64,000 nt of DNA, taken from the NCBI GenBank assembly GCA_015523725.1, contig WAJV01000107.1, positions 959 to 64,958 of the forward strand, in the 5' to 3' direction. The DNA comes from Candidatus Geothermarchaeota archaeon (lineage in GTDB: Archaea > Thermoproteota > Nitrososphaeria > Geothermarchaeales > JDFR-13). Numbering within the stretch: the first letter of the stretch is position 1; every line of letters begins with the position of its first letter. The notes below the pieces were generated by a model that saw only the letters and a list, made by a program, of their open reading frames with translations, was not told where the DNA came from and made no database searches. This document shows, piece after piece, positions 5,145 through 42,143 of the stretch. Position numbers and translations under genes: made by a program.

Positions 5145-6169
5145 ATTACAAGCTTTATCTCTTCCTCAGGAATAGATAACTCCTTGGCGAAAGCTATTGT
5201 AGTCAAGTTCCTATACTCAAAATAGATTGCATTCAAGTACCAGATTACATAACCCAGTCCCAATGCATTCCTAGTAGACATACTCTTAAGAAAATTAGAG
5301 AGAATCAAGTTTATACCATACTCCAGATCAGCTACACTCCCCTCCTCCAAAGCCTCAGCAACATAACTCGAGGCCCAGCCATATGGAGTCGACATAAAAC
5401 TATCTAGGAGAGTTTCTGCCCTAGCCCTCAACAAATTATTTATATATTCATCAGTCAACCTATAAAACGGCCTTAATATAGTCTCCTCAATCAACTCCTG
5501 CGGGGCACCCAACAACTTATATGCAACAATAAAGTAAAGATTCCTTAAATCAATCTCAAAACCAATAATATTCCTAACAACACCCTTATCAGGCAGCCTC
5601 TCAATATATTTAACAACATTCTTATAATACACTCTATCGAGATATGCCTCCAAAGGAATAGTTGAACCATATTCCCGTGCAATTGAAATATAGTTACCGA
5701 CCTCCCGATACTTAGTAAACATCAATAGAGTAACAGCATCCTCCAAGGACTCTGCCTCAATCATAGCCTGATAATTAATCACAGAATAAGTTCTAGGTAA
5801 CGGAATCAAATCATCAACTGCAAGCGATAAACCATGGAACTTAGCTACAAGGATACGTTTAACATTATCCACCTCCACCCTCCTAGTATATGCATCCAAA
5901 AACTTGTTGACAGGCTCAGGAGCAACCTTCAATAAATATAGTAGCCTATCAACATAAACCTCGGAAAAAACTTTATTCAACTCCCTAGCAGTAATACTCT
6001 CCCTAGACAATAAGCCAATCTTCTCTGCATAGTCGCCCCTCGAAACAGACTCAACAAAAGAATTTAAATCCCTAGTCCTAGCCAAGGCCCTAAAATCCTC
6101 AGCATTAAAAAGATGCGTGGATAAGCCATGAGCCCTAGTAATCAAGTAAATATAACTTGCAGACCTCAA
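5141..6169 (-). CDS. atpC: A/V-type ATP synthase subunit C (d)
   Basis: 342 aa all-helical protein. Position directly after atpD in the operon. Confidence 0.7.
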   Translation of the reverse strand: MRSASYIYLITRAHGLSTHLFNAEDFRALARTRDLNSFVESVSRGDYAEKIGLLSRESITARELNKVFSEVYVDRLLYLLKVAPEPVNKFLDAYTRRVEVDNVKRILVAKFHGLSLAVDDLIPLPRTYSVINYQAMIEAESLEDAVTLLMFTKYREVGNYISIAREYGSTIPLEAYLDRVYYKNVVKYIERLPDKGVVRNIIGFEIDLRNLYFIVAYKLLGAPQELIEETILRPFYRLTDEYINNLLRARAETLLDSFMSTPYGWASSYVAEALEEGSVADLEYGINLILSNFLKSMSTRNALGLGYVIWYLNAIYFEYRNLTTIAFAKELSIPEEEIKLVI

Positions 6170-6175
6170 TACATG

Positions 6176-6772
6176 TCACCTACCCAATATATGCTTAGTC
6201 CTCACAAACTCACCCAAAGCATCCTCCATAAGCCTCTCCTCAACATACCTAATAGTCTCCCTATACTGAGGTATAACAATCTTCTCCAGAGAATTAACCT
6301 TCCTAGAAGTACTCATCAACTCATATGCCAATGACTCAATATTATTCTCGACCTCAGCCGTCTTAATCATATAATCAAGAGCCTCATTCAACTTCTTCGC
6401 CAAAGCCTGTATCAAAGGATCGTAAAAAACCGTATAATCAACCCTCTTAGACACCTTCAAACCCACTAAATTAATCCCCATAACCATATTAGTATCAAAA
6501 TCCAGGTCCAAGTAACCGACACTCTTAGCCAATGTCAACAAATCTCTATACCCCTTCCTCATCAAGACATGCGCAAGAAGCTTATAAGCTTCCTTCAACC
6601 GACTCTCCATCTCACTCCTTATACCAACCTCACCCAACAACCTATTAATCTCACCAGCTAAACGATCCCTCTTCATCTCCAGAATCTCTTTCCCCTTAAC
6701 GATAAAACTCAACTGCTCCCTTAGAGCCAAAAGAACACCGGGACTCGCTGAAACACCGGATACAAAACTCAT
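6176..6772 (-). CDS. atpD: A/V-type ATP synthase subunit D
   Basis: 198 aa coiled-coil central stalk protein. N-terminus LLALREQLSFIVKGKEILEMKRDRL is typical of AtpD. Confidence 0.75.
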   Translation of the reverse strand: MSFVSGVSASPGVLLALREQLSFIVKGKEILEMKRDRLAGEINRLLGEVGIRSEMESRLKEAYKLLAHVLMRKGYRDLLTLAKSVGYLDLDFDTNMVMGINLVGLKVSKRVDYTVFYDPLIQALAKKLNEALDYMIKTAEVENNIESLAYELMSTSRKVNSLEKIVIPQYRETIRYVEERLMEDALGEFVRTKHILGR

Positions 6773-6783
6773 ACCCTCAGCAC

Positions 6784-8190
6784 CTAGGAAACAGGTTTAG
6801 CTCTATAATAATATTTCTCCAAAATCTCATCCTTAACCCTAACCAGCTCTTCCTCAGGCAATGTAGATAATACCTCCCAAGCCAAGTCAAGCGTCTCCTC
6901 AATCGTCCTATTCTCATACTCACCTTGATTAATAAACTTCCTCTCAAATATATCGGCGAAACGCAGGAAGAGCCTCTCCCTATCACTCAAACCCATCTCA
7001 CCGACGATCCTAGCCAAATCCCTAGCCTTGAGACCCCTAGAATATGCATCATACAACTGATCCGATACATCCTTATGGTCCTCCCTAGTCTTCCCAGGCC
7101 CCACACCACTCCTCATTAACCTACTGAGACTGGGAAGAACATTAATTGGCGGATAAATGCCCCTAGAATCCAACTCCTTGCTCAATATAATCTGGCCCTC
7201 AGTAATATATCCCGTCAAGTCTGGAATAGGATGTCTCTTATCACCACCCGGCATCGTCAAGATAGGCATCTGCGTCAAAGACCCCGGCCTACCCCTAACA
7301 ATACCAGCCCTCTCATAAATAGTAGCCAAGTCACTATACATATAACCAGGATAACCACCCCTACCCGGAACCTCCTCCCTAGCAGCACTAACCTCCCTAA
7401 GAGCCTCACAATAATTAGTCATATCAGTTAATATAGTTAGAACATGATAACCCAAGTCGAATGCAAGATACTCCGCAATAGTTAATGCAATCCGGGGGGT
7501 TACAAGCCTCTCGATAGCAGGGTCATCAGCCAAATTAAGAACAACCACAGACCTCTCGATAGCACCCGACTCCCTAAACGACTCAATAAAGAAACGGGCC
7601 TCATCATTCTTCAAACCCATCGCGGCAAAAACTATCGCGAACTCCTCCTCCTCACCCAATACAGTCGCCTGCCTAGCAATCTGGGCAGCGACCCTATTAT
7701 GAGGAAGACCAGACTCACTAAATATCGGCAGCTTCTGTCCCCTAATCAAACTCAACATACCATCAATAGCTGATATACCAGTCTGGATAAAGTTATTAGG
7801 ATGAATCCTAGCCCTAGGATTAATCGGCGAACCATTAATATCCCTACGCTCCCTAGACACAATCGGCCCCATACCATCAATAGGCTCAAACCTACCATTA
7901 AACATCCTCCCCAACGCATCATCCGAGACCGGTATCTCGAAAGTAGAGCCGGTGAACCTCACAGCCGTAGCCGTCTCCAAACCCGACTCCTCACCAAAAA
8001 CCTGTACAATAATATATTGGTTACTAACTTCAAGCACTCTACCCATCCTATCGATTCCATCTGGGGCCCTGACTAAAACCACCTCATCATATAAAACATT
8101 GGGTATAGGCTCCAAAACAAGTATAGAACCCCTAACCTCCCTAACACCCTTATGAACAACACCATAAATATCCCTAATATCCAGCGACAT
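6784..8190 (-). CDS. atpB: A/V-type ATP synthase subunit B (regulatory)
   Basis: 468 aa. Degenerate P-loop region and the conserved ...PSLSRLM... segment. Confidence 0.9.
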
Positions 8191-8193
8191 TAA

Positions 8194-10023
8194 CTACACC
8201 TCCACCTCAACACGATACTCACTAGCAAGCCTCTGCAAGGAAGACTTAGCCTCATCAGCCAACTCCTTAATAGCCTCAACCCTCCTAGGATCAAACTTAA
8301 CCCTCTTAATCTTAGACACGACGGGAAGCTCAAGAACCCTATCAATCGGAACCTTCTTCCTAATAAGCTTCTCAACATTATAATGAAAATCAATAATTAA
8401 CTTAAGTAACAAAGCAGACTTCTCAGGCTCAGAATAGGTATCAACCTCATCGAAGGCATTCTGCCTAAGAAAACCCTCTTTAATCAACTCAGAAGTCAAT
8501 AAAAGAAGCCGCTGATCATCTGGAAGAGACTTCTCACCAATGATCCTAGCTATCGACTCAACCTCAGCAGCAGAAGACAATATATTCATAGCGTCCTCCC
8601 TATAACGCGGAAAATCTTTATCAACACTCTTCCACCAATTAAGCAACTCCTCCTTATACATACTGAAACTCCCAATGAATCCACCAAGAATCTCCTTAGC
8701 ATATAAACTATAGCTCTTCAACCAATTAATGGCTGGGAAATGCCTACTATAAGCCAGATCAGCATCTAAAGCCCAGAAGACACCGGTAAACCGTAGAGTA
8801 TGAATCGTAACAGGCTCATTAAAATCACCTCCCGGGGGAGAAACAGCACCAACGATAGTTACCGAACCCTCCCTATCAGGCCTACCTAGGACCTTCACCC
8901 TACCAGCCCTCTCATAGAACTCAGCTATCTTATCAGGAAGATATGCGGGGAAACCACGCTCAACAGGCATCTCACCCAACCTTCCAGATATCTCCCTAAT
9001 AGCCTCAGCCCACCTAGATGTGGAGTCAGCCATAAGTGATACATCATATCCCATATCCCTATAATACTCAGCTATCGTAATACCGATATATACACTAGCC
9101 TCCCTAGCAGAAACCGGCATATTACTCGTATTAGCTATTAATACGGTACGCTCCATCAAAGGCTTACCAGTCTTAGGGTCCACCAACTCAGGAAAATCTT
9201 GAAGAACCTCAGCCATCTCATTCCCACGTTCCCCACATCCAATATAGACAACCACATCAGCATCACTCCACTTAGCCAATTGATGAAGAGTAATCGTCTT
9301 ACCTGTCCCAAATCCACCGGGTATACAGGCAGCCCCACCCTTAGCAACAGGGAAAAACACATCGATTACACGCTGACCAGTAATTAACGGCGTCTTAAGC
9401 GGAAGCCTTCCACCAGGAGCTATAGGCCTAGGCTCCCTCACAGGCCACTCCTGAATCATATTTAATTCCTTAACACCGCCATCATCCAACTCAACCTTAG
9501 CTATGACATCAGTTACCCTGAATTCCCCCTCACCAACCTCCAAAATCTTTCCAGAAACACCATGTGGAACCATAATTTTATGGATAATTGTTGACGACTC
9601 AGGAACCTCACCAATAATATCTCCCCCACTAACATAATCACCCTCCTTAACCAAAGGCCTAAAACTCCACTTAATATCCCTCGGCAACGTATATGCCTTA
9701 ATACCTCTACCAATAAATGGACCACTCGCCCTAATCAAATCATCCAGGGGCCTCCCAACACCATCAAAAATATTCTTAATCAAACCAGGCCCCAACTCGG
9801 CGACCAACTTCTTACCAGTACCCCGAATAGGGTCACCCACCTTCAAACCACTAGTTGGTTCATAAACTTGAGCAGCAAATGTATCCTCAATTATCCGGAT
9901 AACTTCACCAATCAAACCCTCCTCTCCAACCTCGACAACCTCACCAATCTTAATATCTGGAATACCCCTTCCAACAACTAGTGTACCTGAAACCCTAACA
10001 ATCTCTCCAACCCTATCCAACAC
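8194..10023 (-). CDS. atpA: A/V-type ATP synthase catalytic subunit A
   Basis: 609 aa. Walker A GPFGCGKT-type stretch (GGFGTGKT). No intein, continuous. Confidence 0.92.
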   Translation of the reverse strand: MLDRVGEIVRVSGTLVVGRGIPDIKIGEVVEVGEEGLIGEVIRIIEDTFAAQVYEPTSGLKVGDPIRGTGKKLVAELGPGLIKNIFDGVGRPLDDLIRASGPFIGRGIKAYTLPRDIKWSFRPLVKEGDYVSGGDIIGEVPESSTIIHKIMVPHGVSGKILEVGEGEFRVTDVIAKVELDDGGVKELNMIQEWPVREPRPIAPGGRLPLKTPLITGQRVIDVFFPVAKGGAACIPGGFGTGKTITLHQLAKWSDADVVVYIGCGERGNEMAEVLQDFPELVDPKTGKPLMERTVLIANTSNMPVSAREASVYIGITIAEYYRDMGYDVSLMADSTSRWAEAIREISGRLGEMPVERGFPAYLPDKIAEFYERAGRVKVLGRPDREGSVTIVGAVSPPGGDFNEPVTIHTLRFTGVFWALDADLAYSRHFPAINWLKSYSLYAKEILGGFIGSFSMYKEELLNWWKSVDKDFPRYREDAMNILSSAAEVESIARIIGEKSLPDDQRLLLLTSELIKEGFLRQNAFDEVDTYSEPEKSALLLKLIIDFHYNVEKLIRKKVPIDRVLELPVVSKIKRVKFDPRRVEAIKELADEAKSSLQRLASEYRVEVEV

Positions 10024-10673
10024 TAACCACCTCCAAACAACAACTCGAATATAGATACAGCTAACTCCTCCCTAGCCCTATTAAATAGAGCCTCAAAAGA
10101 CGCATTAAAATAAACCTTCTCCTCAACATCACTAACCACAACTCCGCCGACAATATCCAGATAATCATTAGCCAAACCAATCTTTATATTCCTACCGACA
10201 AGCTTGGATACATCCTTACTCAACTTACCCAACAAACCCTTCAACCGCGTCGCATCCTCCTTATTAACATGAATCAAAACCTCATCAACACCAATCTTAT
10301 TAACACCAAGAGCAATCATCCGAGGTAGAAAATCACCATAATATTCCTTACTACCCCTAAAACCAGTAAATCGCTCCCAAGCAGTCTTAAAAACCTGATC
10401 CACAACCTCCCATTTAGTATTAACAATTAATTTCTTACCCTCAATCCTAGCAAGAGATAATTCAGACCGAAGCCTCTCCTCCATCCTCTTCCTAACCTCC
10501 TGCTCCCTACTCAATCGAATCATCCTAGCCTTCTCCTCAGCATCCCTAATAATTTTATCCGCCTCAGCCCTAGCCTCAGACAATATTTCATTAACCTTAC
10601 GCTCAGCCTCCTCAAGAATCTCTCTCCTAAGCTCCTCAATACCCACTACTCGACACCCCCCTCCAACAACCAC
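10023..10673 (-). CDS. atpE: A/V-type ATP synthase subunit E (peripheral stalk). The start is uncertain because the first M overlaps atpH by 28 nt.
   Basis: Charged coiled-coil N-terminus (EELRREILEEAERKVNEIL...) and a globular C-terminal domain. Operon position. Confidence 0.65.
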   Translation of the reverse strand: MVVGGGCRVVGIEELRREILEEAERKVNEILSEARAEADKIIRDAEEKARMIRLSREQEVRKRMEERLRSELSLARIEGKKLIVNTKWEVVDQVFKTAWERFTGFRGSKEYYGDFLPRMIALGVNKIGVDEVLIHVNKEDATRLKGLLGKLSKDVSKLVGRNIKIGLANDYLDIVGGVVVSDVEEKVYFNASFEALFNRAREELAVSIFELLFGGG

Positions 10674-15876: not shown

Positions 15877-17289
15877 TCAAACTATCTCTGGTCTCTTACT
15901 AAGGCGTTCATGGAAATATAATGGTCGGAAAGGAAAACCATTGATATCAGATTTAACCCTCATAATTAAATCATCCAATGTCATTTCAAGAGACTCGCCA
16001 CGACTCCCCCTAATCCTAACATTCAATTTATTACTCTTAACCTCCTTCTCACCAACCACAACAATGTATGGAACCCATTCACGCTCAGCATACATAATCT
16101 TCTTAGAAAGCGATACATCCCTATCATCAATATCAACCCTAATACCAGCATCCCTAATCATAAGCAATAGATTATAGGAATAATCCAAATATGCCTTAGA
16201 AACAGGTATAATCCTGACTTGGGTAGGGGAAAGCCAAGTCGGTAACATAGGTTTCTCACCCCTCTTCGCCATCTTAGCAGCCTCCTCCAAAAATTCATAT
16301 AGGAAACGCTCAACACTACCATGGATAGCTGTGTGCAGAATCACTGGATACTTAATCGATCCATCAACATCATGATACCTAATATTAAACCGCTTAGAAT
16401 TCCCAACATCAATCTGGACAGTAGCGGTTTCAAGAGGCCTACCCTGAGAATCTATGTAATGAAACTCAATATTAATAACCCAATAATATTTACCACTCTC
16501 AACCACATATATTAAGATAGGCTTACCTTCAGATCTAACCAGATCCAAAATAAAATCAAAATTATCCTGAACAAATCCATCTACAACATTATATAGGTTA
16601 TAATACGTCCAACCAAATTTAGAGCCCTCGGACATAATCAATTTAAAAATCTTTTTAAACTCATCCATTGCGGCATCCAAATCAGCGGTTAGAATATGTA
16701 AGTCTGGCATATAAAACCTCCTAGGCCGAGCCAATCCAGAAACCTCTCCCCTCTGCTCATATCTATAACTATCAGCCAACTCGAAAATATATAGAGGTAA
16801 GTCTCTATAACTTAAATAATGCCTCCTCAATAACGCAAACTGACCGAAACAAGCAGCATACCTAAGGACAAACTCCCTCTTAAACGGCTTAACCTTATAC
16901 ATTCTCTGCCCAAATAATGAAGCATGCTCCTTAATCGCTGGAGTATTAAGGTCATACATAATCGAGGTCCTAACAGGTAAGCCTCCAATTCTCCTAACCA
17001 CACTCAAACTATAATCCATCAATAAATCCATAATCAAAGTGCCCTTAGGAAGATAGGTTAAGTGCCCGGCGTCACTCAATGGCTCAACCTCAGCCAACTT
17101 AAGCCTCTTCATATAATCAATATGTGGAGACCTCTTAAACTCCCTCTTCTCACCGAGAGCCTCCTTCTCCAATAACGCCCTAAACCCCTCATCCCCACCG
17201 GCAAACTCCTCAGGATAATATAACTTACCATCAGGGGTCAACACATAATACTCTCCAGGCAATAATTCATCCACCGAGACCTCAGACAT
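15877..17289 (-). CDS. thrS: threonyl-tRNA synthetase, catalytic type (no N-terminal editing domain)
   Basis: Class II motif 2 FRYEQRGEVSGLARPRRFYMPDLHIL, as in ThrRS. C-terminal anticodon-binding domain. 470 aa, lacking the N2/editing region as in crenarchaeal ThrRS-cat. Confidence 0.7.
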   Translation of the reverse strand: MSEVSVDELLPGEYYVLTPDGKLYYPEEFAGGDEGFRALLEKEALGEKREFKRSPHIDYMKRLKLAEVEPLSDAGHLTYLPKGTLIMDLLMDYSLSVVRRIGGLPVRTSIMYDLNTPAIKEHASLFGQRMYKVKPFKREFVLRYAACFGQFALLRRHYLSYRDLPLYIFELADSYRYEQRGEVSGLARPRRFYMPDLHILTADLDAAMDEFKKIFKLIMSEGSKFGWTYYNLYNVVDGFVQDNFDFILDLVRSEGKPILIYVVESGKYYWVINIEFHYIDSQGRPLETATVQIDVGNSKRFNIRYHDVDGSIKYPVILHTAIHGSVERFLYEFLEEAAKMAKRGEKPMLPTWLSPTQVRIIPVSKAYLDYSYNLLLMIRDAGIRVDIDDRDVSLSKKIMYAEREWVPYIVVVGEKEVKSNKLNVRIRGSRGESLEMTLDDLIMRVKSDINGFPFRPLYFHERLSKRPEIV

Positions 17290-17479
17290 TCTTCCACCTC
17301 AACCTCTCCAATCTATCCAACTTCTTCCTCCTCTTCTTAAACTCTTTATAATGTTTCTTACATAGATATACCCTCCTACCACTAGGCTTAACATCCAACC
17401 CAGCCTCACGAACCTTATTTATAGATAGAGATCTTACAGCAACTTCTCCACATCCCTCAACACTACATATATCAGGCAA
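17282..17479 (-). CDS. small zinc-ribbon protein, translationally coupled upstream of thrS
   Basis: C-x2-C ... C-x2-H (CSVEGC ... CKKH) and a basic tail. Overlaps the thrS start by 8 nt. Confidence 0.4.
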   Translation of the reverse strand: MPDICSVEGCGEVAVRSLSINKVREAGLDVKPSGRRVYLCKKHYKEFKKRRKKLDRLERLRWKNV

Positions 17480-17528: not shown

Positions 17529-18182
17529 TTGGGAAATATATATCCTACGTACCAAAAAATATTCTTTATCCAAGAGAGTGATGAAGAGGTGCTAAATAAA
17601 TTTAGGGAGAAACTCGAAACAAAGATAAATAATATAGCCAAAATATTCATTAAAATCGGCATACCGCCATGGATAGTATCACTAACAGGCTTAGTAATAA
17701 TAATCATATCATCAATAATCCTATTAATAGATAGATCAACACAGGGAATAATCATCTCACTAGTAATCTTTTTAATAGGTAATGCGATGGATGCCCTCGA
17801 TGGACCGATTGCTAGGCTAACAGGGAAGACGAGTAAGTGGGGAGGAATAACCGACTCCACACTAGATAAAATAGGTGAAACCATATATCCCTATACATTA
17901 GGATACACGGGAATAGCCCAATGGAGCCTCATCTATATCTACATAGTGACAGCGATACTAATCAGCTATTTAAGGGCCAGGGGAGAGGCTGAAGGAATAT
18001 ATATGAGGGGAATCGGGCTAATGGAGAGGGCTGAAAGGATAATTAGCCTAACAATAATACTATTATTATATGCTTTAACCAAAATCGATATTAATGTAAT
18101 GCTAACTATCCTAATTATATTAAACATAGTTACGATGATACAAAGAACCTACTATTTACACCAATCACTTAGTGAAAGCTAA
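17529..18182 (+). CDS. CDP-alcohol phosphatidyltransferase family lipid synthase
   Basis: Motif D-A-L-D-G-x2-A-R-x8-G-x3-D-x3-D (AMDALDGPIARLTGKTSKWGGITDSTLD). Polytopic. Confidence 0.75.
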   Translation: MGNIYPTYQKIFFIQESDEEVLNKFREKLETKINNIAKIFIKIGIPPWIVSLTGLVIIIISSIILLIDRSTQGIIISLVIFLIGNAMDALDGPIARLTGKTSKWGGITDSTLDKIGETIYPYTLGYTGIAQWSLIYIYIVTAILISYLRARGEAEGIYMRGIGLMERAERIISLTIILLLYALTKIDINVMLTILIILNIVTMIQRTYYLHQSLSES

Positions 18183-19604
18183 TCTCCCACCACCAAAAAC
18201 CCTCTTAGTGACACCCATAGCAGCATAAGGCAACCGATGTACATCTATTATCGATGGAATATTGTTTACAACCTCACCCAAAACCAAAACCCTACCACGG
18301 ACCAAATCCTTAGCAATAGATTTGACAGTAGCACTATCAACATTAGCTATCCTACTAAGCATCTCCAAATCATGGTCATTCTGGAATCTAAATATAAATA
18401 TATTATCAAGTTGCCTAAAAACCTCATGACCAAGCGAATCAGGTTGATTAGTTATAAATACTACAAATAACCCAAAATGCCTCATCCTAGTAATAACATC
18501 CTCCCAATATGTATCCCTAACATATAAATGAGCCTCCTCCGCAAATATGAATAAGGGATCCAGCAAATTCCTCTCAAGCAAATCAACTAATTTACTTAAA
18601 AAAATCTCCACCAAAATTCTCCTCTCAACAGAGGACAAACCCCTCAAATTAATAATGACACCACGATAATCCCTAAACAAATCCTCTAGCCCAACACTAG
18701 ATCCATCCCTAAGAAACCTACACGACTTAAGTATTAACAATCTTGATATCAAAGCATCCCTAATCATCAAATTTCTAACATAGTTATTAACAACATTTAT
18801 TAGACCATCGAAAGACAAGCCATAACCACGCCTAACAGCTACATCCCAAACCTCATTAAAAATATTTGCCGATACACCTGGCAAACCCAAAACATTCACC
18901 ATTAAATTAAGAACTGTATCCCTACCAAGATACTCAAGACTGAAATAGAGATTCTTCCCAGGATCAAACACCTCAACACCACTAGCCTCGACCAACCCAA
19001 GATACTCACCATTCAAATCAAATATAAGAATAGGTGCCCCGTGAGAAACCAAATTAACAGCCAATAATTTAGCCAAGTGAGACTTACCCGATCCCTTCAT
19101 TCCAGTAATCAATGTAAGAGAGCCGTCTAGCTTCTCAGCATAAATAGACACAGGATTACCATCAAAATCGATGCCCAAACCAATCTTATACTTAAATTCA
19201 CCCCCATCAACCAATCTAAGCACCTCAGACGTAGAGACCCTCTCAATTTTAGAATAGGCCCGTGAGGGTAAATCACTATATACAGAGGAGAAAACGCCAT
19301 CCTTAATAGACCCCCTAATGATAGCGGTAGCCAACTTAGTGTCCTTCAAAAACCTGGAGGCCCTCCCGACCTCAATCAAATCAGTCTCAACAAAATTTGA
19401 CTTATCCAGCAACCCTTCACGAACCAACTCATCTAAAATCCCAGGTGAATCTATATACTTAATATCAATAACCTGAACAACCAGGGAATAATCGCGCCCC
19501 ACATCACTAACCAAAAGATACTCTCCCTTCCTAATAGTTTCATGCGGAAAAACGAGAATCTCCAATGAATCCCCATCCTTCCTATATATTTTCATTATTA
19601 TCAC
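18165..19604 (-). CDS. HerA-like (FtsK/HerA superfamily, DUF87-type) ATPase
   Basis: N-terminal barrel-like segment, Walker A GMKGSGKS, Walker B LFIFAEEAH and sensor FITNQPDSL. Overlaps and is co-directional with the upstream NurA-like gene. Confidence 0.65.
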   Translation of the reverse strand: MIIMKIYRKDGDSLEILVFPHETIRKGEYLLVSDVGRDYSLVVQVIDIKYIDSPGILDELVREGLLDKSNFVETDLIEVGRASRFLKDTKLATAIIRGSIKDGVFSSVYSDLPSRAYSKIERVSTSEVLRLVDGGEFKYKIGLGIDFDGNPVSIYAEKLDGSLTLITGMKGSGKSHLAKLLAVNLVSHGAPILIFDLNGEYLGLVEASGVEVFDPGKNLYFSLEYLGRDTVLNLMVNVLGLPGVSANIFNEVWDVAVRRGYGLSFDGLINVVNNYVRNLMIRDALISRLLILKSCRFLRDGSSVGLEDLFRDYRGVIINLRGLSSVERRILVEIFLSKLVDLLERNLLDPLFIFAEEAHLYVRDTYWEDVITRMRHFGLFVVFITNQPDSLGHEVFRQLDNIFIFRFQNDHDLEMLSRIANVDSATVKSIAKDLVRGRVLVLGEVVNNIPSIIDVHRLPYAAMGVTKRVFGGGRLAFTK

Positions 19605-20628
19605 CCACTAAGGAATTAAAAGCACCAAAAATAACATCCCTCAAACCATAGGAACCAATAAATTTAACGCCAAATTCAGACTCTACATACTTCTTAACAC
19701 CAATTAACTCACCCCTAGACATTTTCGAGAGAATATGAGCCTCCTTAAGTACCTCTATGTATCCATGGCTAGTATGACTGGCATTATATAGATAATTAAG
19801 GACATCCTCATCCGATATAACACCAAGAGACCCAACATCAACTCTCATAGGTAAACCACCCCTCCTAAAAACACCAATATAAACATTATATGGATAACCC
19901 CGCTCCCTAGTATATCTGGGAACACTTACAGCACAAGGCGACCCATACCGAACAACCAAACTAAATAACCAAGGATAACGCCTAACCAACCTAGTCTTCT
20001 TCGCTATACCCACCAATGAATTCTTCCTAATCCTCCCCAAAAAGATCCCAGAAGAACCAGAATCCAGAAAAGATTTAAACAAAGACAAAGAACCATCTAA
20101 AACAATTAAACCCCTGTCCATAACCTCATCCGCAAACTCCATTAACAAATACTCAAAAATAGATATGAGAAACCTCTTCGCATCAGATGGCTCAAGAAAA
20201 CCCTTAAAATATCTAGATGATCCAGTAACATTAATGGATTCCAACATACTAACCAACGTATCCTCATCTAAGTATATCGGCAATGGACCCACCTTAAATA
20301 CATGATAAACACCACGATACTCACTGACTAAAGCACCCTTAATTGAGAATAAAAGCCCACCCTTAGACTCCCCAACAACAACAATAGATGAGTCTATTCC
20401 AATAATGGGCACATAATCATCCACACTCTTCAAATCAATCACATTGTAACCATCGACACCAGCCCCATCAGCCATAAACAAGGGAGTTAAATCACTCACA
20501 ACTCCACTAACATCCCTCGACACTATATTATCTCCCCTAATGTTCTCAAGAGAGTTTAAAAACAGGTTTTCCAATATATCCTTGAGTGTTTTGTTTTTGA
20601 TTCTTATTGATAATTCATGAACATTCAT
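19582..20628 (-). CDS. NurA-like nuclease (putative), partner of the HerA-like ATPase
   Basis: 348 aa. Two D-G/S-S motifs (IIGIDSS, LIVLDGSL) typical of the NurA RNase-H-like fold. 23-nt overlap with the HerA-like gene. Confidence 0.45.
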   Translation of the reverse strand: MNVHELSIRIKNKTLKDILENLFLNSLENIRGDNIVSRDVSGVVSDLTPLFMADGAGVDGYNVIDLKSVDDYVPIIGIDSSIVVVGESKGGLLFSIKGALVSEYRGVYHVFKVGPLPIYLDEDTLVSMLESINVTGSSRYFKGFLEPSDAKRFLISIFEYLLMEFADEVMDRGLIVLDGSLSLFKSFLDSGSSGIFLGRIRKNSLVGIAKKTRLVRRYPWLFSLVVRYGSPCAVSVPRYTRERGYPYNVYIGVFRRGGLPMRVDVGSLGVISDEDVLNYLYNASHTSHGYIEVLKEAHILSKMSRGELIGVKKYVESEFGVKFIGSYGLRDVIFGAFNSLVGDNNENI

Positions 20629-20697
20629 TTCACTTCATGAATAATATTGAATATACAAAATATTTAAATCTTTATTCAACTATTTATTATAATAGGT

Positions 20698-21090
20698 TTG
20701 AGTAACATGAGGGATGAGAAGATAAAAGTTAAGATGAATATTAAAGGTATTGAAGTAGAGATAGAATGCCTTCCATCCCAATTGAATCAAGCAATAAAAA
20801 ATATAGTCGAGTCATTAGGCGGAGCCACTACCGAAGAAGATACTGAATTTAGACCGTTAACCTGTAAAGAAGCCGTTGAAAAACTATGGATGGAGGGGTG
20901 GTTCAGTAATCCAAGGAAATTAGGTGAGGTTTGGAGTGAATTATCTAGGAGGGGCTTTAACTATGATAGAAGCGCGATATCCCACGCACTCAAATCACTT
21001 GTTAAAGAAGGGAAATTAACGAGGATGGGTAAGACTAGGAGATATAGTTATGTCCAAAAAATACCATCTAAAATTAAACAATTTAAATAA
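20698..21090 (+). CDS. small protein, member 1 of a local paralogous triad (N-terminal beta-hairpin motif + C-terminal winged helix)
   Basis: N-terminus KIKVKMNIKGIEVEIE. C-terminal wH SAISHALKSLVKEGKLTRMGKTRRYSY shared with the two downstream paralogs. Confidence 0.5.
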   Translation: MSNMRDEKIKVKMNIKGIEVEIECLPSQLNQAIKNIVESLGGATTEEDTEFRPLTCKEAVEKLWMEGWFSNPRKLGEVWSELSRRGFNYDRSAISHALKSLVKEGKLTRMGKTRRYSYVQKIPSKIKQFK

Positions 21091-21112: not shown

Positions 21113-21601
21113 CTATAGATTAATCAATTTTATTAACCCCTTTACAGAGATCTCATAGTGAACACCACTGGATGACCTAATTCTTTTAACATATCCATCA
21201 TAATGTAGCTCACTCAATCTAGAGGAGATGGTTTTAGATGGTTTGCCTAGAATCATAGTTAATTCCCTTAATGATAAGTAGGGATTATCTGATTTACCCG
21301 CCAAATGAGTTAATTTAGCTATTCCTAGAGCAATTAATATTTTATTACTGAGAGCTAGTCTCTTGGGAGGCGATTCCCTAAATATGATTTCACCATCCTC
21401 AGACACCATGACATATTTTGATAGGGATTTAGATAACTCAATATAATCCACGTCAACCGATAATTCCTTAAATAAATCGAATCCAGGTAATACCTTCCCC
21501 ATCCACTTAATAATAGTTTTTATGACATCCTCCGGCTCTCCAGACACCTCTAGACTCAAGTCTTTAAACATGACCTTTGCATATACCTTATTATTACTCA
21601 A
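21113..21601 (-). CDS. small protein, member 2 of the paralogous triad
   Basis: N-terminus AKVMFKDLSLEVSG. C-terminal wH TISSRLSELHYDGYVKRIRSSSGVHYEI. Confidence 0.5.
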   Translation of the reverse strand: MSNNKVYAKVMFKDLSLEVSGEPEDVIKTIIKWMGKVLPGFDLFKELSVDVDYIELSKSLSKYVMVSEDGEIIFRESPPKRLALSNKILIALGIAKLTHLAGKSDNPYLSLRELTMILGKPSKTISSRLSELHYDGYVKRIRSSSGVHYEISVKGLIKLINL

Positions 21602-22059
21602 TCACCCTCACCCAATTGAATATTACCAGATACATAGAGATAGTGCTTATCCTTCCCCCTAATCCTCCTTATCACACCCCGCTGCACAAGCCTCTTCAGA
21701 GAAACCGCGATACTAGACTTTGGATAATATACTCCATAAGACTCAAGCATATTAATAATCTCCTTAAGCTGCCTAGGCTTACGTCCCCAGTCTGTTGAGA
21801 AGAACTTAGTCAATATCTGTGTCAAAGGCTCACCACTCTTGATCTTTACGTCAGGGAGGCCTCCAACAACCTCCTCAACACGCTCTCCAACAGATACTTC
21901 CTTAGACGCCTCTTTAGCCACTAAATAGGGCATCAATGTATTTACTAATGTAGCAACCTCCTCATATGAACCAGATAACTCTAATTCATTACCACCTATC
22001 CGAATCCTTACATATATCTTACCAGCCTCCTCACCCACTAAAATCACCCAGTAAATCAT
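21598..22059 (-). CDS. small protein, member 3 of the paralogous triad
   Basis: N-terminus KIYVRIRIGGNELELSG. C-terminal wH SIAVSLKRLVQRGVIRRIRGKDKHYLYV. 4-nt overlap with member 2. Its start overlaps the gatE stop. Confidence 0.5.
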   Translation of the reverse strand: MIYWVILVGEEAGKIYVRIRIGGNELELSGSYEEVATLVNTLMPYLVAKEASKEVSVGERVEEVVGGLPDVKIKSGEPLTQILTKFFSTDWGRKPRQLKEIINMLESYGVYYPKSSIAVSLKRLVQRGVIRRIRGKDKHYLYVSGNIQLGEGD

Positions 22060-37558: not shown

Positions 37559-40500
37559 ATGAGAACGTATATCAAAGAGATACGTATAAACAACTACAAA
37601 ACATATAAAAATGCTAGAATAAAATTTCACCCCCAACTCAACATAATAGTTGGTCCAAACGGCTCCGGCAAATCAAACCTCATAGAAGCAATATTATATG
37701 GATTAGGAGAAAGAAGTATGAAGGTATTCAGAGCATATAAATATAAGGACCTCCTCCCAGCAGACTCAAGAAACTCAGCAAAAACACTATCCGTAACAAT
37801 AATAATCGAGGACCAGAATGGAGATGAGCATATCTTCAAAAGAATATATAATGCAAATAACAATACCCATGCATATTACTATAATAGAAAAAGAGTGAGT
37901 AGAGGAGTATACATATCAAAACTAGCCACATTAGGATACAGGGGACTACACCATGTATATATCCCCCAAGGAGGAATAATAAGCAAAGCAAATATAACAT
38001 CAAGAGATTTAAAAGACATCGTAGACGATGCATTAGGAATAAAAGAATTTAATATCAAAAAGCAGGAGGCCCTAGAGAAACTTGAGAAAGCCGAGGCCAA
38101 ACTGGAGAATATAAAGGAAAAACAAGAGATCATGAAGGAAGTAATATATACACTAATGGCTCAAATGATATCATACGATAGAAAGAATAATTTAGATAAG
38201 ATATCAAGAAGAATAAAAGGCTATTTAATAGTCAATGAAAATAAGAAAATAAGGCCCAAACTAACAAAATACACGAAGAAAATAAATGAATTAGAGAATA
38301 TAAAGGAGAAACTAAACAAGAGAATGGAGAAAATAGAGGAGAAAATAACTAAAATCGATGCAAAGATGGGGAAGCTAAGAGAGAAATTAAAGGGCAGAGA
38401 AGAATATCAACAACTACTCAAAGAATATTCAGATGTAAATATCAATATAACTACTACACAAGATAAAATAAAGAGACTTACAGATGACAAAGAGAGATAT
38501 CTAGATGAGATATCCCAGATAGATAAAGATTTAGAAAATATAAAACTCGAAGTAGCTACATACGCAGCCACACTAAAAGAACTAAATCAAGCAAATAGAA
38601 GAAACCAAACAGAGTTAAATAGCCTATATAAAGAGAAAGAAAAACTAGAAAATAAGATAAATAAATTGAGAGAAGAGTTAGACCAAATAATTGAAAAGAA
38701 AGAGAAACTAGAGGAGGAGAAAGAGAATATATTGAAGACGCATATTAAGGAAGAAGCGGAGATAATAGCCATCGAAAAAATAAAAGACTTATATATAGAC
38801 AAGAAGAAGCAGCTAGAAGACAAGAGAAGAAAATATCTAGATACAATAAAAAAATTCGAAGAGAGAATCGAGAAATTAAGCCAAATGAAGACAGAACTAG
38901 ACAATAAACTAAAGAAGCTAAGGAAAGAGAAGGAGAAAAAAGACAATAGATATAGAGAGTTAAAGAGGGAGATAAGAGACGCAGAAAAATTATTAAATAA
39001 AGTAGAGAGATATATTGAGAAACTTAGAAAGGAGGAGGAAATCAGAAACATAGAATTTAAGAATAATGCAGAATACGTACTGAAGATAGCCAAAGATATG
39101 AACTTAAAAGGAGTGTTGGGAATACTATCCAACTTTATAAATGGACCAAAAGAAATCATCAACATCCTAAGAAGATACCTAGGAAGAGAATGGTACAGCA
39201 TCATAGTATATGACGAGGCAACAGCAAAAAAATTATTTAAACTATCGGAGTCAATAAAAAAGAAAGTCGTTATCAAACCAATAACCAAATACATGTCCAA
39301 CGAAGAAAAAATCCATGAAAGAAGTGTGATAAACATATTAAAAATAAAGAACTATAGAAAACTAAAACCACTAGTAAACTCTCTATTTGGGGACTTGATA
39401 ATAACATCAGATCTTGAAGAAGGTATAAAACTCCTAGATGAGGGACATGGAATAATCAGTAGGAAAGGAGAGTTCATAATCACACCAGACAACTGGATAT
39501 ACGAAGGAAGGAAAAGAATGGTCATAGATGAAGACATATCCAAAATAGAAGAAATATACCACCAATTTAAACGAATGATAGACCTAAGGAGAGAAGATCT
39601 AGATAAACTAAATGAAGAAAGAGAGAAACTAATAGACGATATAACAGAAGCCACAAGTGAGTACACCAGACTAAAACAATCTATAGAACTCATAAAGACA
39701 TCAATAGGATACATGAAAGACCTAGAGAAATTCTATCGCAACAAGGTAAAAGAGATAGAGAAAGACCTATCGAAAGAAAAAAATAGAAGAAAGATCGATA
39801 AAACACCATTAGATGAAATTAGAACAATAGAAAATAAAATAAACACTATTTATAAAAAGATGGCGGATTATACAAATGAAATAACCGAAATAAACACAAA
39901 AATAAATAATATAAATAATTTAATTAGTAAAAATAATGCCAATATAGAATTAATAAAAAAATCAATATTGTCGACAAAGGAGAAGAAAGCAAGACTCAAG
40001 AAAAGAAGAAGTGAAGTGAAAACAAGGATAAAAAACATAGATAGGGAGATAAATAATCTAAAAAACACGCTAAAAATATTAGAGAGGAATAAGAAGGAAA
40101 GCGAATCCCAACTCAATAAATTCAATGAAGAAATCAAAGCAATAGAGGATAAACTAGAGAAACTGAATTCACTAAAGAATCAACTATATGGCAAATGGAA
40201 AAAAGCCAATGAAAAACTATCAGACCTAAAGGAAATAGAGACCAGATTAACATACAAAATCAAAACATTGAAGACTAGGCTAATACACAATGAAGACACT
40301 ATATTGAAACTTGGATATACAATAGAGGAACTCTCAAATAAAGAGACAAACATCGAGACTTTAGAGTTACTGCAGCAAGAAGTCGATGAAGAATTAAAAA
40401 GCTTTGAGAAAGAGGCCCACTACCCCTCACCCACAGCCTATATTGAATATAGAGAAAAATATGAGCCATACAAACTATTCACAATAAACCGGGCGAAACT

Positions 40501-41029
40501 AGAGGAGGAAAAAGAGGCGATCCTAGATTTTATTAGAGAGATTGAGATGGAGAAGGAGAGGACATTTAGAGAAGGCTTCACAAAGATCAAGGAGAAATTC
40601 ACCAGACTAATTAATCACGTCTTCCCCGATTCAGAAGTATATATAGAACTAGAGGATCCAGAGGATATAGATAGTGGTTTGGCAGTATATGTAAAGTTAA
40701 GGGATAAACCACAACTCCCAGTAATATCAGCCAGTGGAGGGGAGAAATCACTATTCATCATACTATTTCTACTATCCGTTTATTCCATACCAGGGAACGT
40801 CGTATTCCTACTAGATGAAATTGATGCACATATAGACCCACGTAACCTGAATAAGTTCGCGTCAGCCCTAGAACTCCAAAAGACAGAGAGCCAAATCATA
40901 TACGTAACATTACCCAGGGACGAGGCCCTACCCAGAATATCAGACCACCTAATAGGAATATTTTTCCGCAGAGGAGTTTCCCGCCCAGTAGTTATACCAA
41001 ACACAGAATTATTCAGGGTGGTGAAGTAA
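37559..41029 (+). CDS. smc: SMC chromosome condensation/segregation ATPase
   Basis: N-terminal Walker A GPNGSGKSN. About 800 aa of coiled coil. C-terminal signature SGGEKSL, and D-loop/Walker B LLDEIDAHID. No CxxC zinc hook, so not Rad50. Confidence 0.8.
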   Translation: MRTYIKEIRINNYKTYKNARIKFHPQLNIIVGPNGSGKSNLIEAILYGLGERSMKVFRAYKYKDLLPADSRNSAKTLSVTIIIEDQNGDEHIFKRIYNANNNTHAYYYNRKRVSRGVYISKLATLGYRGLHHVYIPQGGIISKANITSRDLKDIVDDALGIKEFNIKKQEALEKLEKAEAKLENIKEKQEIMKEVIYTLMAQMISYDRKNNLDKISRRIKGYLIVNENKKIRPKLTKYTKKINELENIKEKLNKRMEKIEEKITKIDAKMGKLREKLKGREEYQQLLKEYSDVNINITTTQDKIKRLTDDKERYLDEISQIDKDLENIKLEVATYAATLKELNQANRRNQTELNSLYKEKEKLENKINKLREELDQIIEKKEKLEEEKENILKTHIKEEAEIIAIEKIKDLYIDKKKQLEDKRRKYLDTIKKFEERIEKLSQMKTELDNKLKKLRKEKEKKDNRYRELKREIRDAEKLLNKVERYIEKLRKEEEIRNIEFKNNAEYVLKIAKDMNLKGVLGILSNFINGPKEIINILRRYLGREWYSIIVYDEATAKKLFKLSESIKKKVVIKPITKYMSNEEKIHERSVINILKIKNYRKLKPLVNSLFGDLIITSDLEEGIKLLDEGHGIISRKGEFIITPDNWIYEGRKRMVIDEDISKIEEIYHQFKRMIDLRREDLDKLNEEREKLIDDITEATSEYTRLKQSIELIKTSIGYMKDLEKFYRNKVKEIEKDLSKEKNRRKIDKTPLDEIRTIENKINTIYKKMADYTNEITEINTKINNINNLISKNNANIELIKKSILSTKEKKARLKKRRSEVKTRIKNIDREINNLKNTLKILERNKKESESQLNKFNEEIKAIEDKLEKLNSLKNQLYGKWKKANEKLSDLKEIETRLTYKIKTLKTRLIHNEDTILKLGYTIEELSNKETNIETLELLQQEVDEELKSFEKEAHYPSPTAYIEYREKYEPYKLFTINRAKLEEEKEAILDFIREIEMEKERTFREGFTKIKEKFTRLINHVFPDSEVYIELEDPEDIDSGLAVYVKLRDKPQLPVISASGGEKSLFIILFLLSVYSIPGNVVFLLDEIDAHIDPRNLNKFASALELQKTESQIIYVTLPRDEALPRISDHLIGIFFRRGVSRPVVIPNTELFRVVK

Positions 41030-41677
41030 ATGAGTGTAGAAGACCTACCAATAATACTAGAAGACAGAGATAAACTGATGAAGATAAATCCATGGAAAAT
41101 AGATCTAAAGAAAGAGATAGAGAAAATACTAGAGTATTTCGATAAAAATGGATTAAATTATATTTTAGCCGGATACGCAGCAGACAATTCATCATTAGTC
41201 TTTAAGAGAAAAGTGGAGACCATAGAAAACATAACTAAACCATTTAAGAAAAGAAGAGCCGAGACAGAGGTGGAAAAAAATATTTTACTACCTGAGATCG
41301 AGGTCGCACACCTAATAGGTAAACCAATTATAGACCTCAGCGATATCATAAATAAATTAAGTGAAATACTTGAGAAAAGAATGAGTATGAAAGCAGGCCT
41401 CTCAGACCAAGATGAAGTAGACATATTAACAAATTATTACACAGAGACTATCTTAAGTGAAGAGAGGATACAGGAAATATGGAGAATCCTAAATGACGCA
41501 TTCAAAATAATTAAACCCCAAATATCGCTACTAGAAATAATCGAAACATTAACCCAATATACACCCTACATAATATTCTTCGCCATAATATTTCTCTACA
41601 TGGATGGGAAAATAGATGTGGATATAGTGGAGGAGGATGGCGTTGCAAAAGACATCATCATCAAAAAAATTGAGTAG
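41030..41677 (+). CDS. scpA: ScpA (kleisin)-like protein, immediately downstream of smc
   Basis: 215 aa. N-terminal INPWKIDL motif region and C-terminal winged helix. Position in the smc operon. Confidence 0.5.
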   Translation: MSVEDLPIILEDRDKLMKINPWKIDLKKEIEKILEYFDKNGLNYILAGYAADNSSLVFKRKVETIENITKPFKKRRAETEVEKNILLPEIEVAHLIGKPIIDLSDIINKLSEILEKRMSMKAGLSDQDEVDILTNYYTETILSEERIQEIWRILNDAFKIIKPQISLLEIIETLTQYTPYIIFFAIIFLYMDGKIDVDIVEEDGVAKDIIIKKIE

Positions 41678-42143
41678 GAAATTAGAGGGATTACTAGACG
41701 CCCTATTCTTTGCAACAACACGACCTATTAGTATAAACAGCATAATGAAGCTACTGGAGATTAAAGATAAGAAAGAGGCCAAAAAAATCATGAATCTCTA
41801 CATGGAAAACTTTAGACAAAAGATGTATGGAGTCAAAATCGTGAGGAGGGGAGAATACTTCTACCCAAAAATAGACGAGAAATACATCGAGAAAATAAGC
41901 GGATACTTACATCCCCCACCCCTAACCAACAAACAACTCGAGGTATTAGCATATATTTATGTAAACAAAAGGGTTAAAATGAGTGAATTAAGCAACATAT
42001 TTGGATCAAGAACATATAAAGACGTAAAGAAATTCATTAGATTAGGATTAGTTTCAAGGAGAAAGACAGAGCAAGGCTATATAGTAGAGATTAGGAAAGA
42101 GGCCGAGCCACTAATAATAAGAAAAAGAAGAAGGAGAAAATAG
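41637..42143 (+). CDS. scpB: ScpB-like tandem winged-helix protein
   Basis: LEGLLDALFFATTRPISINSIMKLL first wH and LTNKQLEVLAYIYVNKRVKMSEL second wH. Overlaps scpA. Confidence 0.5.
   Translation: MALQKTSSSKKLSRKLEGLLDALFFATTRPISINSIMKLLEIKDKKEAKKIMNLYMENFRQKMYGVKIVRRGEYFYPKIDEKYIEKISGYLHPPPLTNKQLEVLAYIYVNKRVKMSELSNIFGSRTYKDVKKFIRLGLVSRRKTEQGYIVEIRKEAEPLIIRKRRRRK

Follow-up and report, generated by a model that had tools for sequence, protein, structure and literature searches.

What do two overlapping genes for a HerA-like ATPase and a NurA-like protein do in an archaeon when they stand apart from mre11 and rad50? The question is raised by a stretch of 64,000 nucleotides (nt) of contig WAJV01000107.1 from Candidatus Geothermarchaeota archaeon (assembly GCA_015523725.1, positions 959 to 64,958 of the forward strand; hereafter the window). 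The pair, here called herA2 and nurA2, is probably a "type-2" archaeal HerA-NurA helicase-nuclease of the Nitrososphaeria and Bathyarchaeia, which would perform ATP-driven resection of DNA ends for recombination in a lineage where Mre11-Rad50 is unlinked. Both open reading frames (ORFs) were found where the original prediction, made from the sequence alone, had placed them on the minus strand, together with the motifs it had quoted (GMKGSGKS, LFIFAEEAH and FITNQPDS in the protein of 479 amino acids (aa); IGIDSS and VLDGSL in the 348-aa protein). The features of the pair are:

18165..19604, minus strand: herA2, HerA-clade (FtsK/HerA superfamily) ATPase; longest ORF 479 aa from GTG 19604
19582..20628, minus strand: nurA2, predicted NurA-fold (RNase H-like/PIWI) nuclease, 348 aa
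19582..19605, minus strand: nurA2/herA2 junction, in which the nurA2 stop (19582-19584) overlaps the herA2 start region; sequence read directly
20629..20697, no strand: nurA2-wHTHb intergenic region, 69 nt, divergent

The assignment of the 479-aa protein to the FtsK/HerA superfamily held. It matched the Pfam DUF87/HerA central domain (PF01935) with 58.2 bits (gathering (GA) cutoff 23.2), and its hhalign comparison with the HerA of the canonical operon yielded a probability of 99.5% (E=1.8e-22) over 424 columns at ~23% identity. This alignment begins in the N-terminal region (residue 16 against canonical residue 24), where HerA proteins have a HAS-barrel domain ahead of the ATPase core; at the C-terminus, the tail of canonical HerA is longer than that of HerA2 by ~40 residues. 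When the PDB was searched with the HerA2 family profile, the best match was HerA of Sulfolobus solfataricus (Sso; 4d2i, E=2e-15) over 42-472, i.e., essentially end to end, with the profile (A2) aligned to Sso HerA starting at residue 30; anti-phage HerAs aligned with it solely over the C-terminal ATPase part. The motifs are located as follows:

19080-19103: Walker A GMKGSGKS, residues 168-175 (K174)
18528-18554: Walker B LFIFAEEAH, residues 351-359 (E356/E357)
18471-18491: RMRHFG arginine-finger region, R373/R375, aligned with canonical EGRKFG
18435-18458: TNQP sensor (FITNQPDS), residues 383-390

Walker A, Walker B with its catalytic Glu, and RMRHFG are invariant across the family alignment (A2). 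HerA2 scored below the cutoffs of the NCBIfam equivalogs for double-strand-break (DSB) repair (HerA_Thermprot/helicase_HerA; 37.8 vs 800 and 20.3 vs 970), and no transmembrane segment was detected in it. Judged from these alignments, the ATPase is a divergent full-length HerA homolog; the wording "non-canonical end-resection module" of the original prediction thus fits as regards sequence (~23% identity, scores far below the equivalog cutoffs). Identity within the HerA2 family across Geothermarchaeota, Nitrososphaera and Bathyarchaeia is 40-80%, and same-genome comparisons (~51-54% identity for NurA2 vs 80% for HerA2) indicate that NurA2 evolves much faster.

Placement of the 348-aa protein required profile and fold searches. 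A single-sequence phmmer search of the PDB returned no match, no NCBIfam model matched, and the Pfam NurA model was passed marginally (23.8 bits, cutoff 21). Starting from a profile of 5 sequences, a deep HMMER search produced a family of ~230 clusters (relatives of 330-380 aa), and 88 of 100 family members matched Pfam NurA individually (best E=2.5e-12). The sole PDB match of the family profile was S. solfataricus NurA (2ygk, E=1.7e-6), with DGSL and GYP..AH aligned. An AlphaFold2 model computed from 100 sequences reached a predicted local distance difference test score (pLDDT) of 83.8 and a predicted template-modelling score (pTM) of 0.83 (an earlier 5-sequence model with pLDDT 62 was discarded). 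In a Foldseek search of the PDB with this model, ranks 1-8 were all NurA-family proteins, followed by EndoV and Argonaute PIWI; the top ranks comprised 2ygk (E=4e-10, template-modelling scores 0.51/0.55), TdpB (8wfd_G) and the NurA proteins of Thermococcus kodakarensis (9x1l/m/n_G) and Pyrococcus furiosus (Pfu; 3tai/3tal), and Deinococcus radiodurans NurA was a significant match as well. The resemblance to NurA, for which a comparison with 2YGK and 3TAI had been proposed, was thereby borne out. The predicted active site consists of:

20392-20394: D79 (IGIDSS), predicted catalytic
20152-20154: E159, predicted catalytic
20095-20097: D178 (VLDGSL), predicted catalytic
19735-19737: H298, predicted catalytic
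19999-20001 and 19759-19761: K210/Y290 active-site pair

D79, D178, G179, K210, R262, Y290 and H298 are invariant in the family, and E159 is at least 90% conserved. The catalytic or active-site residues reported for the known enzymes are D58, E116, D133, K202 and Y298 in Sso NurA (PMC3326311) and D51, E105, D126 and H411 in Pfu NurA (PMC3300031). NurA2 D79/D178/K210/Y290/H298 correspond to Sso D58/D133/K202/Y298/H306 and to Pfu D51/D126/H411; in the hidden Markov model (HMM) alignment, D178 falls on Sso D133, H298 on Sso H306 and Y290 on Sso Y298 within the GYP motif. Profile and model evidence together identify the 348-aa protein as a NurA-fold nuclease whose predicted catalytic residues are intact.

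The two genes are predicted to form a coupled operon with its own TATA-like promoter. The true start of herA2 is most likely ATG 19593-19595, giving a protein of 476 aa (MKIYRK...); it was preferred because gene callers use ATG 19595 and because it agrees with the N-termini of homologs. With this start the overlap with nurA2 is 14 nt, vs 23 nt with GTG 19604; the typical overlap in related loci is 4 nt. A Shine-Dalgarno-like GGTGAT (19600-19605) lies 4-5 nt upstream of the ATG within the 3' end of nurA2, and the location of both elements inside the end of nurA2 indicates that the genes are translationally coupled. A TATA-like box, TTTAAATA, is situated at 20661-20668 (minus strand), 32 nt upstream of the nurA2 ATG, and a TATA/B-recognition-element (BRE)-like element, (GCGCAA)TATTTAAATA, recurs 5' of nurA2 in loci of Geothermarchaeota, Nitrososphaeria and Bathyarchaeia. 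An inverted repeat around the TATA box (TTGAATA-N19-TATTCAA) was considered as an operator and rejected as not significant (matched in 439 of 1000 shuffles); its upstream arm is gone in relatives at 55% ATPase identity, and inverted repeats of at least 7 nt were observed in 22% of loci vs 12% expected. A scan for sigma-70 promoters and terminators remained at background level and is inapplicable to archaea.

The distribution of the pair was assessed from 138 non-redundant related loci; the denominators given below are the loci with enough flanking sequence. At least 590 species-level genomes of Geothermarchaeota, Nitrososphaera and Bathyarchaeia carry the type-2 family, apparently as one conserved locus. 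Every named match belongs to Nitrososphaeria or Bathyarchaeia, and the closest named relatives of the window are metagenome-assembled genomes (MAGs) of Geothermarchaeota/Nitrososphaeria. nurA2 lies directly upstream of herA2 in 116 of 119 loci. The surroundings are those of a housekeeping locus: at 55% ATPase identity, near-complete genomes retain the order ELP3-GatD-GatE-wHTHs-nurA2-herA2-CDP-OH transferase-ThrRS-PolB-arginase-ATP synthase (wHTH, winged helix-turn-helix), loci of the Nitrososphaera type carry Hel308/Hjm, MCM and the RFC small subunit within a few kb (L064 9493-11631, L045 13431-15500 and L080 18497-19486), a neighbourhood of replication and repair genes, and Orc1/Cdc6 and an intein-bearing RadA share the 64-kb window with herA2. 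No relatives of HerA2 were found among the viral contigs searched. Two contigs labelled bacterial (DATKLC010000078.1, L016, Krumholzibacteriaceae; DASQZS010000302.1, L083, Acidoferrum) carry wHTH-nurA2-herA2(-mre11-rad50) and are probably mis-binned archaeal contigs.

The original prediction contrasted the pair with archaeal herA-nurA genes embedded with mre11 and rad50, an arrangement that is true of thermophiles only (PMC7776575), so that the premise does not reach beyond them. Its description of the pair as standing alone applies to the 64-kb window, where homology and profile searches detected no Mre11 or Rad50 homolog (an SMC alone scored weakly), but not to all relatives: in 11 of 108 loci Mre11-2 lies at most 10 kb downstream of herA2, with Mre11 and then Rad50 following herA2. 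A regular-expression scan of the related loci for Mre11/Rad50 signature motifs gave a false negative, and the 11 loci were found by phmmer and profiles. Those that are named are all Bathyarchaeia, including Ca. Hecatella orcuttiae. Two loci (L023, L118) show the co-directional order gatE-wHTHa-wHTHa-wHTHb-nurA2-herA2-mre11-rad50, and in the remaining ones herA2 is separated from mre11-rad50 by a convergent NUDIX gene or by a few genes. The best NCBIfam matches of Mre11-2 and Rad50-2 are archaeal equivalogs (Mre11_Sulfo, 113 bits; Rad50, 145 bits), with scores equal to or above those of the canonical proteins of Thermofilum pendens; the proteins nevertheless form a family of their own (650-1220 bits mutually vs 41-128 bits for canonical-operon proteins). 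The absence of mre11-rad50 here and in ~90% of loci, set beside their linkage in 11 of 108, marks the stand-alone arrangement as a lineage state of a clade that is evolutionarily tied to Mre11-Rad50, and points to ordinary recombinational end resection with relocated partners, an outcome close to the one that the original prediction had itself named as a refutation.

A further constant of the locus is a set of small winged-helix genes. These had been noted merely as a triad in the neighbourhood; the three ORFs exist, and their linkage is the tightest of any feature of the system:

20698..21090, plus strand: wHTHb, 130 aa, divergent from nurA2; probable start ATG 20707; 162.9 bits with profile A5
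21113..21601, minus strand: wHTHa, 162-aa paralog from the same small wHTH family; 161.3 bits with profile A6
21598..22059, minus strand: wHTHb', 153 aa, second b-type copy; 130.5 bits with profile A5

A gene of wHTH family a or b is present at most 4 kb upstream of herA2 in 102 of 103 loci (1-3 copies per locus), the gene immediately upstream of nurA2 is a wHTH in 69 of 71, and the conserved gene order is D> G> b> a> b< N> H>. Since a wHTH precedes nurA2 even where gatDE has been relocated, these genes travel with nurA2-herA2 and not with gatDE. Their profiles matched nothing in the 15 loci with canonical operons that were examined. By hhalign (95.9%, E=5e-9), families a and b are homologous, i.e., paralogs, and share an N-terminal beta element (KVKMNIKGIEVEIEC in wHTHb) and a C-terminal winged helix; against Pfam and the PDB, only generic winged-helix matches of the BlaI/MecI, MarR, AspA and Lrs14 types were obtained. 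wHTHb' shares 29 nt with the end of gatE and 4 nt with wHTHa. The genes of the minus strand between 21113 and 26983 (ELP3, GatD, GatE and two wHTH genes) lie head to tail with 4-29-nt overlaps, which suggests that they are transcribed together, as a single long RNA that stops right before the divergent wHTH gene. The paralogs may be DNA-binding partners or regulators of HerA2-NurA2.

The relation to the canonical type is illustrated by a 10.2-kb contig of a Guaymas Bathyarchaeote (QMYG01000017.1, L046) with the gene order wHTHa-wHTHa-wHTHb-nurA2-herA2-NUDIX-162aa-nurA(484 aa)-herA(543 aa)-mre11. On the DSB-repair equivalogs the scores were 231 and 195 bits for its second HerA but 33 and 34 for the first, HerA2. 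The canonical-type nurA-herA-mre11 operon (5978-10177) directly follows the type-2 pair and the NUDIX gene, and the contig ends with an Mre11 of the canonical type. As both types are carried on this contig, they are distinct and able to coexist. The canonical-type operon occupies the position held by Mre11-2/Rad50-2 in the relatives, which hints at replacement in situ by a horizontally acquired operon. The canonical-type HerA family was found in nurA-herA-mre11-rad50 operons of T. pendens, one Nitrososphaerota MAG and many Bathyarchaeia. A second independent tandem was not found: contigs L090-L092 begin at the canonical nurA, the whole-genome shotgun prefixes of the MAGs with canonical operons matched none of the listed type-2 loci, and a metagenome scan with the HerA2 of L046 recovered both types on one contig only, which was the same one (L103). 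The canonical-type HerAs themselves (proteins P0274-P0393) are 52-57% identical between Bathyarchaeia, Thermofilaceae, Archaeoglobaceae and Asgard archaea (Njord-/Hodarchaeota), an unusually high value for lineages so far apart, which suggests that the thermophile-type operon has spread horizontally or that constraint is extreme.

By homology to the complexes of Sulfolobus, Pyrococcus and Thermococcus, a HerA2 hexamer would drive DNA ends, at the expense of ATP, into a dimer of NurA2, where two-metal D-E-D-H active sites would digest the strands. The resected ends could then serve RadA-mediated recombination and the restart of broken replication forks. We infer that the two proteins form such a complex, that it resects DNA ends and that it cooperates in this lineage with an unlinked Mre11-Rad50 encoded elsewhere. 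It agrees with this reading that in the complete genome of Ca. Nitrosocaldus, nurA and herA (NCAV_1103-1104, matched by annotation, not by sequence) are likewise adjacent and ~150 genes away from mre11-rad50 (NCAV_1257-1258). Several observations weigh against it. NurA2 only just clears the Pfam NurA threshold, and its catalytic Glu aligns 3 residues (one helical turn) away from Sso E116. The HerA-docking positions I295/F300 of Sso NurA are S287/E292 in NurA2 (family consensus GYPE) and the hydrophobic patch is absent, so that the known interface appears unconserved; with a Glu at the position of F300, the NurA-HerA interface must be remodelled if a complex forms. Mre11-Rad50 linkage is seen in just ~10% of loci and in none of the window's own lineage. 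Finally, the coexistence of both types in L046 leaves room for a specialised rather than a general role in resection.

Such a specialised role is the strongest of the rival explanations, plausible though unlikely. The pair would be a second HerA-NurA module working alongside a canonical herA-nurA-mre11-rad50 system but with a different task, for example the processing of particular chromosomal structures to which the wHTH proteins would direct it, be they stalled forks, termini, or the ends of integrated or foreign DNA. The tandem on the 10-kb contig, the canonical-type operons in Bathyarchaeia and one Nitrososphaerota MAG, the deep divergence of type-2 (23% identity) with its remodelled docking residue, and the presence of wHTH companions in 102 of 103 type-2 but 0 of 15 canonical-operon loci all agree with it, as does the extra NurA-like/HerA-like pair of S. 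islandicus (PMC9976892). The coexistence is nevertheless confined to a single MAG contig and resembles replacement of Mre11-2/Rad50-2 more than a stable two-system state, the linkage of type-2 to its own Mre11-Rad50 in 11 loci speaks for an ordinary role in resection, and just one NurA is listed for Ca. Nitrosocaldus.

The original prediction also offered a defence system, a reading that the genomic data do not support and that is now very improbable. Here NurA2 would be the effector nuclease of an anti-virus or anti-plasmid system of the HerA-plus-effector type (Sir2-HerA, DUF4297-HerA, TdpAB, MADS). In PADLOC, HerA2 indeed matches mad8 best (62.5 bits) and several HerA models of the defence type next, TdpB (in TdpAB, the subunit resembling NurA) is among the top structural matches of NurA2, and the nuclease evolves much faster than the ATPase. 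The PADLOC matches are, however, generic and at the level of the ATPase only; NurA2 had none, and no Sir2, DUF4297 or DNA-modification genes were seen among the called neighbours. Defence HerAs align on the C-terminal ATPase part only, whereas the repair HerA of S. solfataricus aligns at full length, and 11 loci have the pair clustered with Mre11-Rad50. From order to order and class to class, the locus keeps a fixed, syntenic place among genes of translation and replication; it is apparently single and near-universal in its lineages, and its ATPase evolves slowly; this housekeeping synteny and the absence of relatives from viral contigs argue against defence. Least credible of all is a role of HerA2 as the DNA-translocation ATPase of a Ced/Ted-like apparatus for DNA import or export. 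CedD is its best NCBIfam match (53 bits), and in Thermoproteales Ted loci are found together with HerA-like genes (PMC9905601), but the score covers the ATPase core only and compares with a cutoff of 600, no CedA/TedA channel or pilin genes are present in the neighbourhood, and the partner is a NurA nuclease. Identity with CedD, which has a transmembrane segment and a VirB4-like N-domain (PMC11868833), was rejected, as both are missing in HerA2.

Within the favoured reading of type-2 as a resection helicase-nuclease, the wHTH proteins leave scope for a bolder proposal. Three conserved paralogs exceed the needs of a simple autoregulator, so that, speculatively, they may bind DNA as partners of HerA2-NurA2. 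Type-2 might then have at least three components, with the wHTH proteins as integral DNA-binding subunits or loaders instead of simple repressors, guiding HerA2-NurA2 to particular DNA ends or structures and partly replacing recruitment by Mre11-Rad50; we regard this as possible but doubtful. If true, the wHTH proteins of Thaumarchaeota and Bathyarchaeota would make up a family of accessory factors in archaeal end resection that had not been recognised before.

Other features of the window are as follows. The SMC mentioned in the original prediction is correctly told apart from Rad50:

15877-17479, minus strand: region holding the Cys-rich ORF of the next line and a threonyl-tRNA synthetase of just 470 aa, with catalytic core and anticodon domain and without the editing domain
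17282-17479: conserved 65-aa Cys-rich ORF overlapping the ThrRS start; both are syntenic in L003 and L088
30381-31628, minus strand: 415-aa ORF with an N-terminal helix-turn-helix (HTH_23/HTH_Tnp_1-like) and LAGLIDADG_3, apparently free-standing and outside a host gene
37559-41029: true SMC of 1156 aa with a hinge domain, not Rad50
37559-42143, plus strand: the SMC gene followed by ORFs of 215 aa and 168 aa, candidate ScpA/ScpB kleisin partners
51794-54340, minus strand: 848-aa recombinase of the RadA/Rad51 type, split by an intein that carries a LAGLIDADG homing-endonuclease domain (Pfam matches: Rad51, 262 bits; Intein_splicing; LAGLIDADG_3)

Over the whole window (1-64000; genome ~37% GC) the GC skew is -0.3 to -0.5 over minus-strand genes and positive over plus-strand genes; this strong skew indicates that the coding strand is markedly purine-loaded.

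In archaea, HerA-NurA is the equivalent of the machinery for long-range resection in eukaryotes, and in Sulfolobus it is essential. To our knowledge, all mechanistic information on it comes from the canonical operon of thermophiles. Pairs of HerA and NurA are already well known, also where they are unlinked from Mre11-Rad50, and thaumarchaeal genome papers list "HerA-NurA" (PMC5797428). The new part is the near-obligate wHTH companions: the literature searched on HerA2/NurA2 and on HerA/NurA of Bathyarchaeota contained no description of the divergent clade, of its own Mre11-Rad50 type or of the wHTH genes. Ecologically dominant Nitrososphaeria (including ammonia oxidisers) and Bathyarchaeia thus appear to use a deeply divergent HerA-NurA with a probably remodelled interface, an Mre11-Rad50 type of its own in some lineages and undescribed wHTH companions. 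Current annotation lumps it with the canonical pair, as in Ca. Nitrosocaldus, where the presumed type-2 pair is filed under the generic arCOG00280/00367. Recognition of the type-2 clade supplies concrete candidate accessory factors, helps in reading "HerA/NurA present" entries when the metabolism and DNA repair of these phyla are reconstructed, and protects against the mislabelling of stand-alone pairs as defence systems.

Among known systems, the extra pair of S. islandicus, annotated in a paper on Sulfolobales cell-cycle regulators that gives no functional characterisation of it (PMC9976892), is likened to type-2 by annotation only, not by sequence. The HerA anti-phage systems (TdpAB, Sir2-HerA 8J4U, DUF4297-HerA and MADS mad8) likewise combine a HerA-like hexameric ATPase with a nuclease or effector, and TdpB shares the NurA fold; type-2 differs from them in having neither modification or sensor genes nor an island-like context. 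The bacterial stand-alone NurA-HerA pairs (D. radiodurans 7F6D; Thermus thermophilus) are also without adjacent Mre11-Rad50 (SbcCD), and are dispensable and of unclear role (PMC7776575); type-2 is archaeal, has a conserved housekeeping context and is nearer to the Sso proteins than to the bacterial ones. The canonical-type operon (T. pendens CP000505, Bathyarchaeia, the Nitrososphaerota MAG) has the same nurA-herA-(mre11-rad50) order as type-2 loci L023 and L118, but all four of its proteins fall into sequence families separate from those of type-2, and its HerA spans distant phyla at 52-57% identity, whereas type-2 is restricted to Nitrososphaeria and Bathyarchaeia. From the archaeal HerA-NurA of known structure (S. 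solfataricus HerA 4D2I and NurA 2YGK, P. furiosus NurA 3TAI, T. kodakarensis 9X1L-P), type-2 differs in its ~23% HerA identity, the failed equivalog cutoffs, a C-terminal tail shorter by ~40 residues, the replacement of F300 by Glu, a compact NurA2 (348 aa vs 433-484 aa in canonical-type operons), the lack of linkage to Mre11-Rad50 in ~90% of loci, and the wHTH paralogs, which canonical operons lack. It has in common with them the same two folds and the same coupled order of nurA before herA, the Walker A and B motifs and the arginine-finger region, the D-E-D-H site and K/Y pair of NurA, alignment with Sso HerA over its full length, and, in some type-2 relatives, clustering with Mre11-Rad50.

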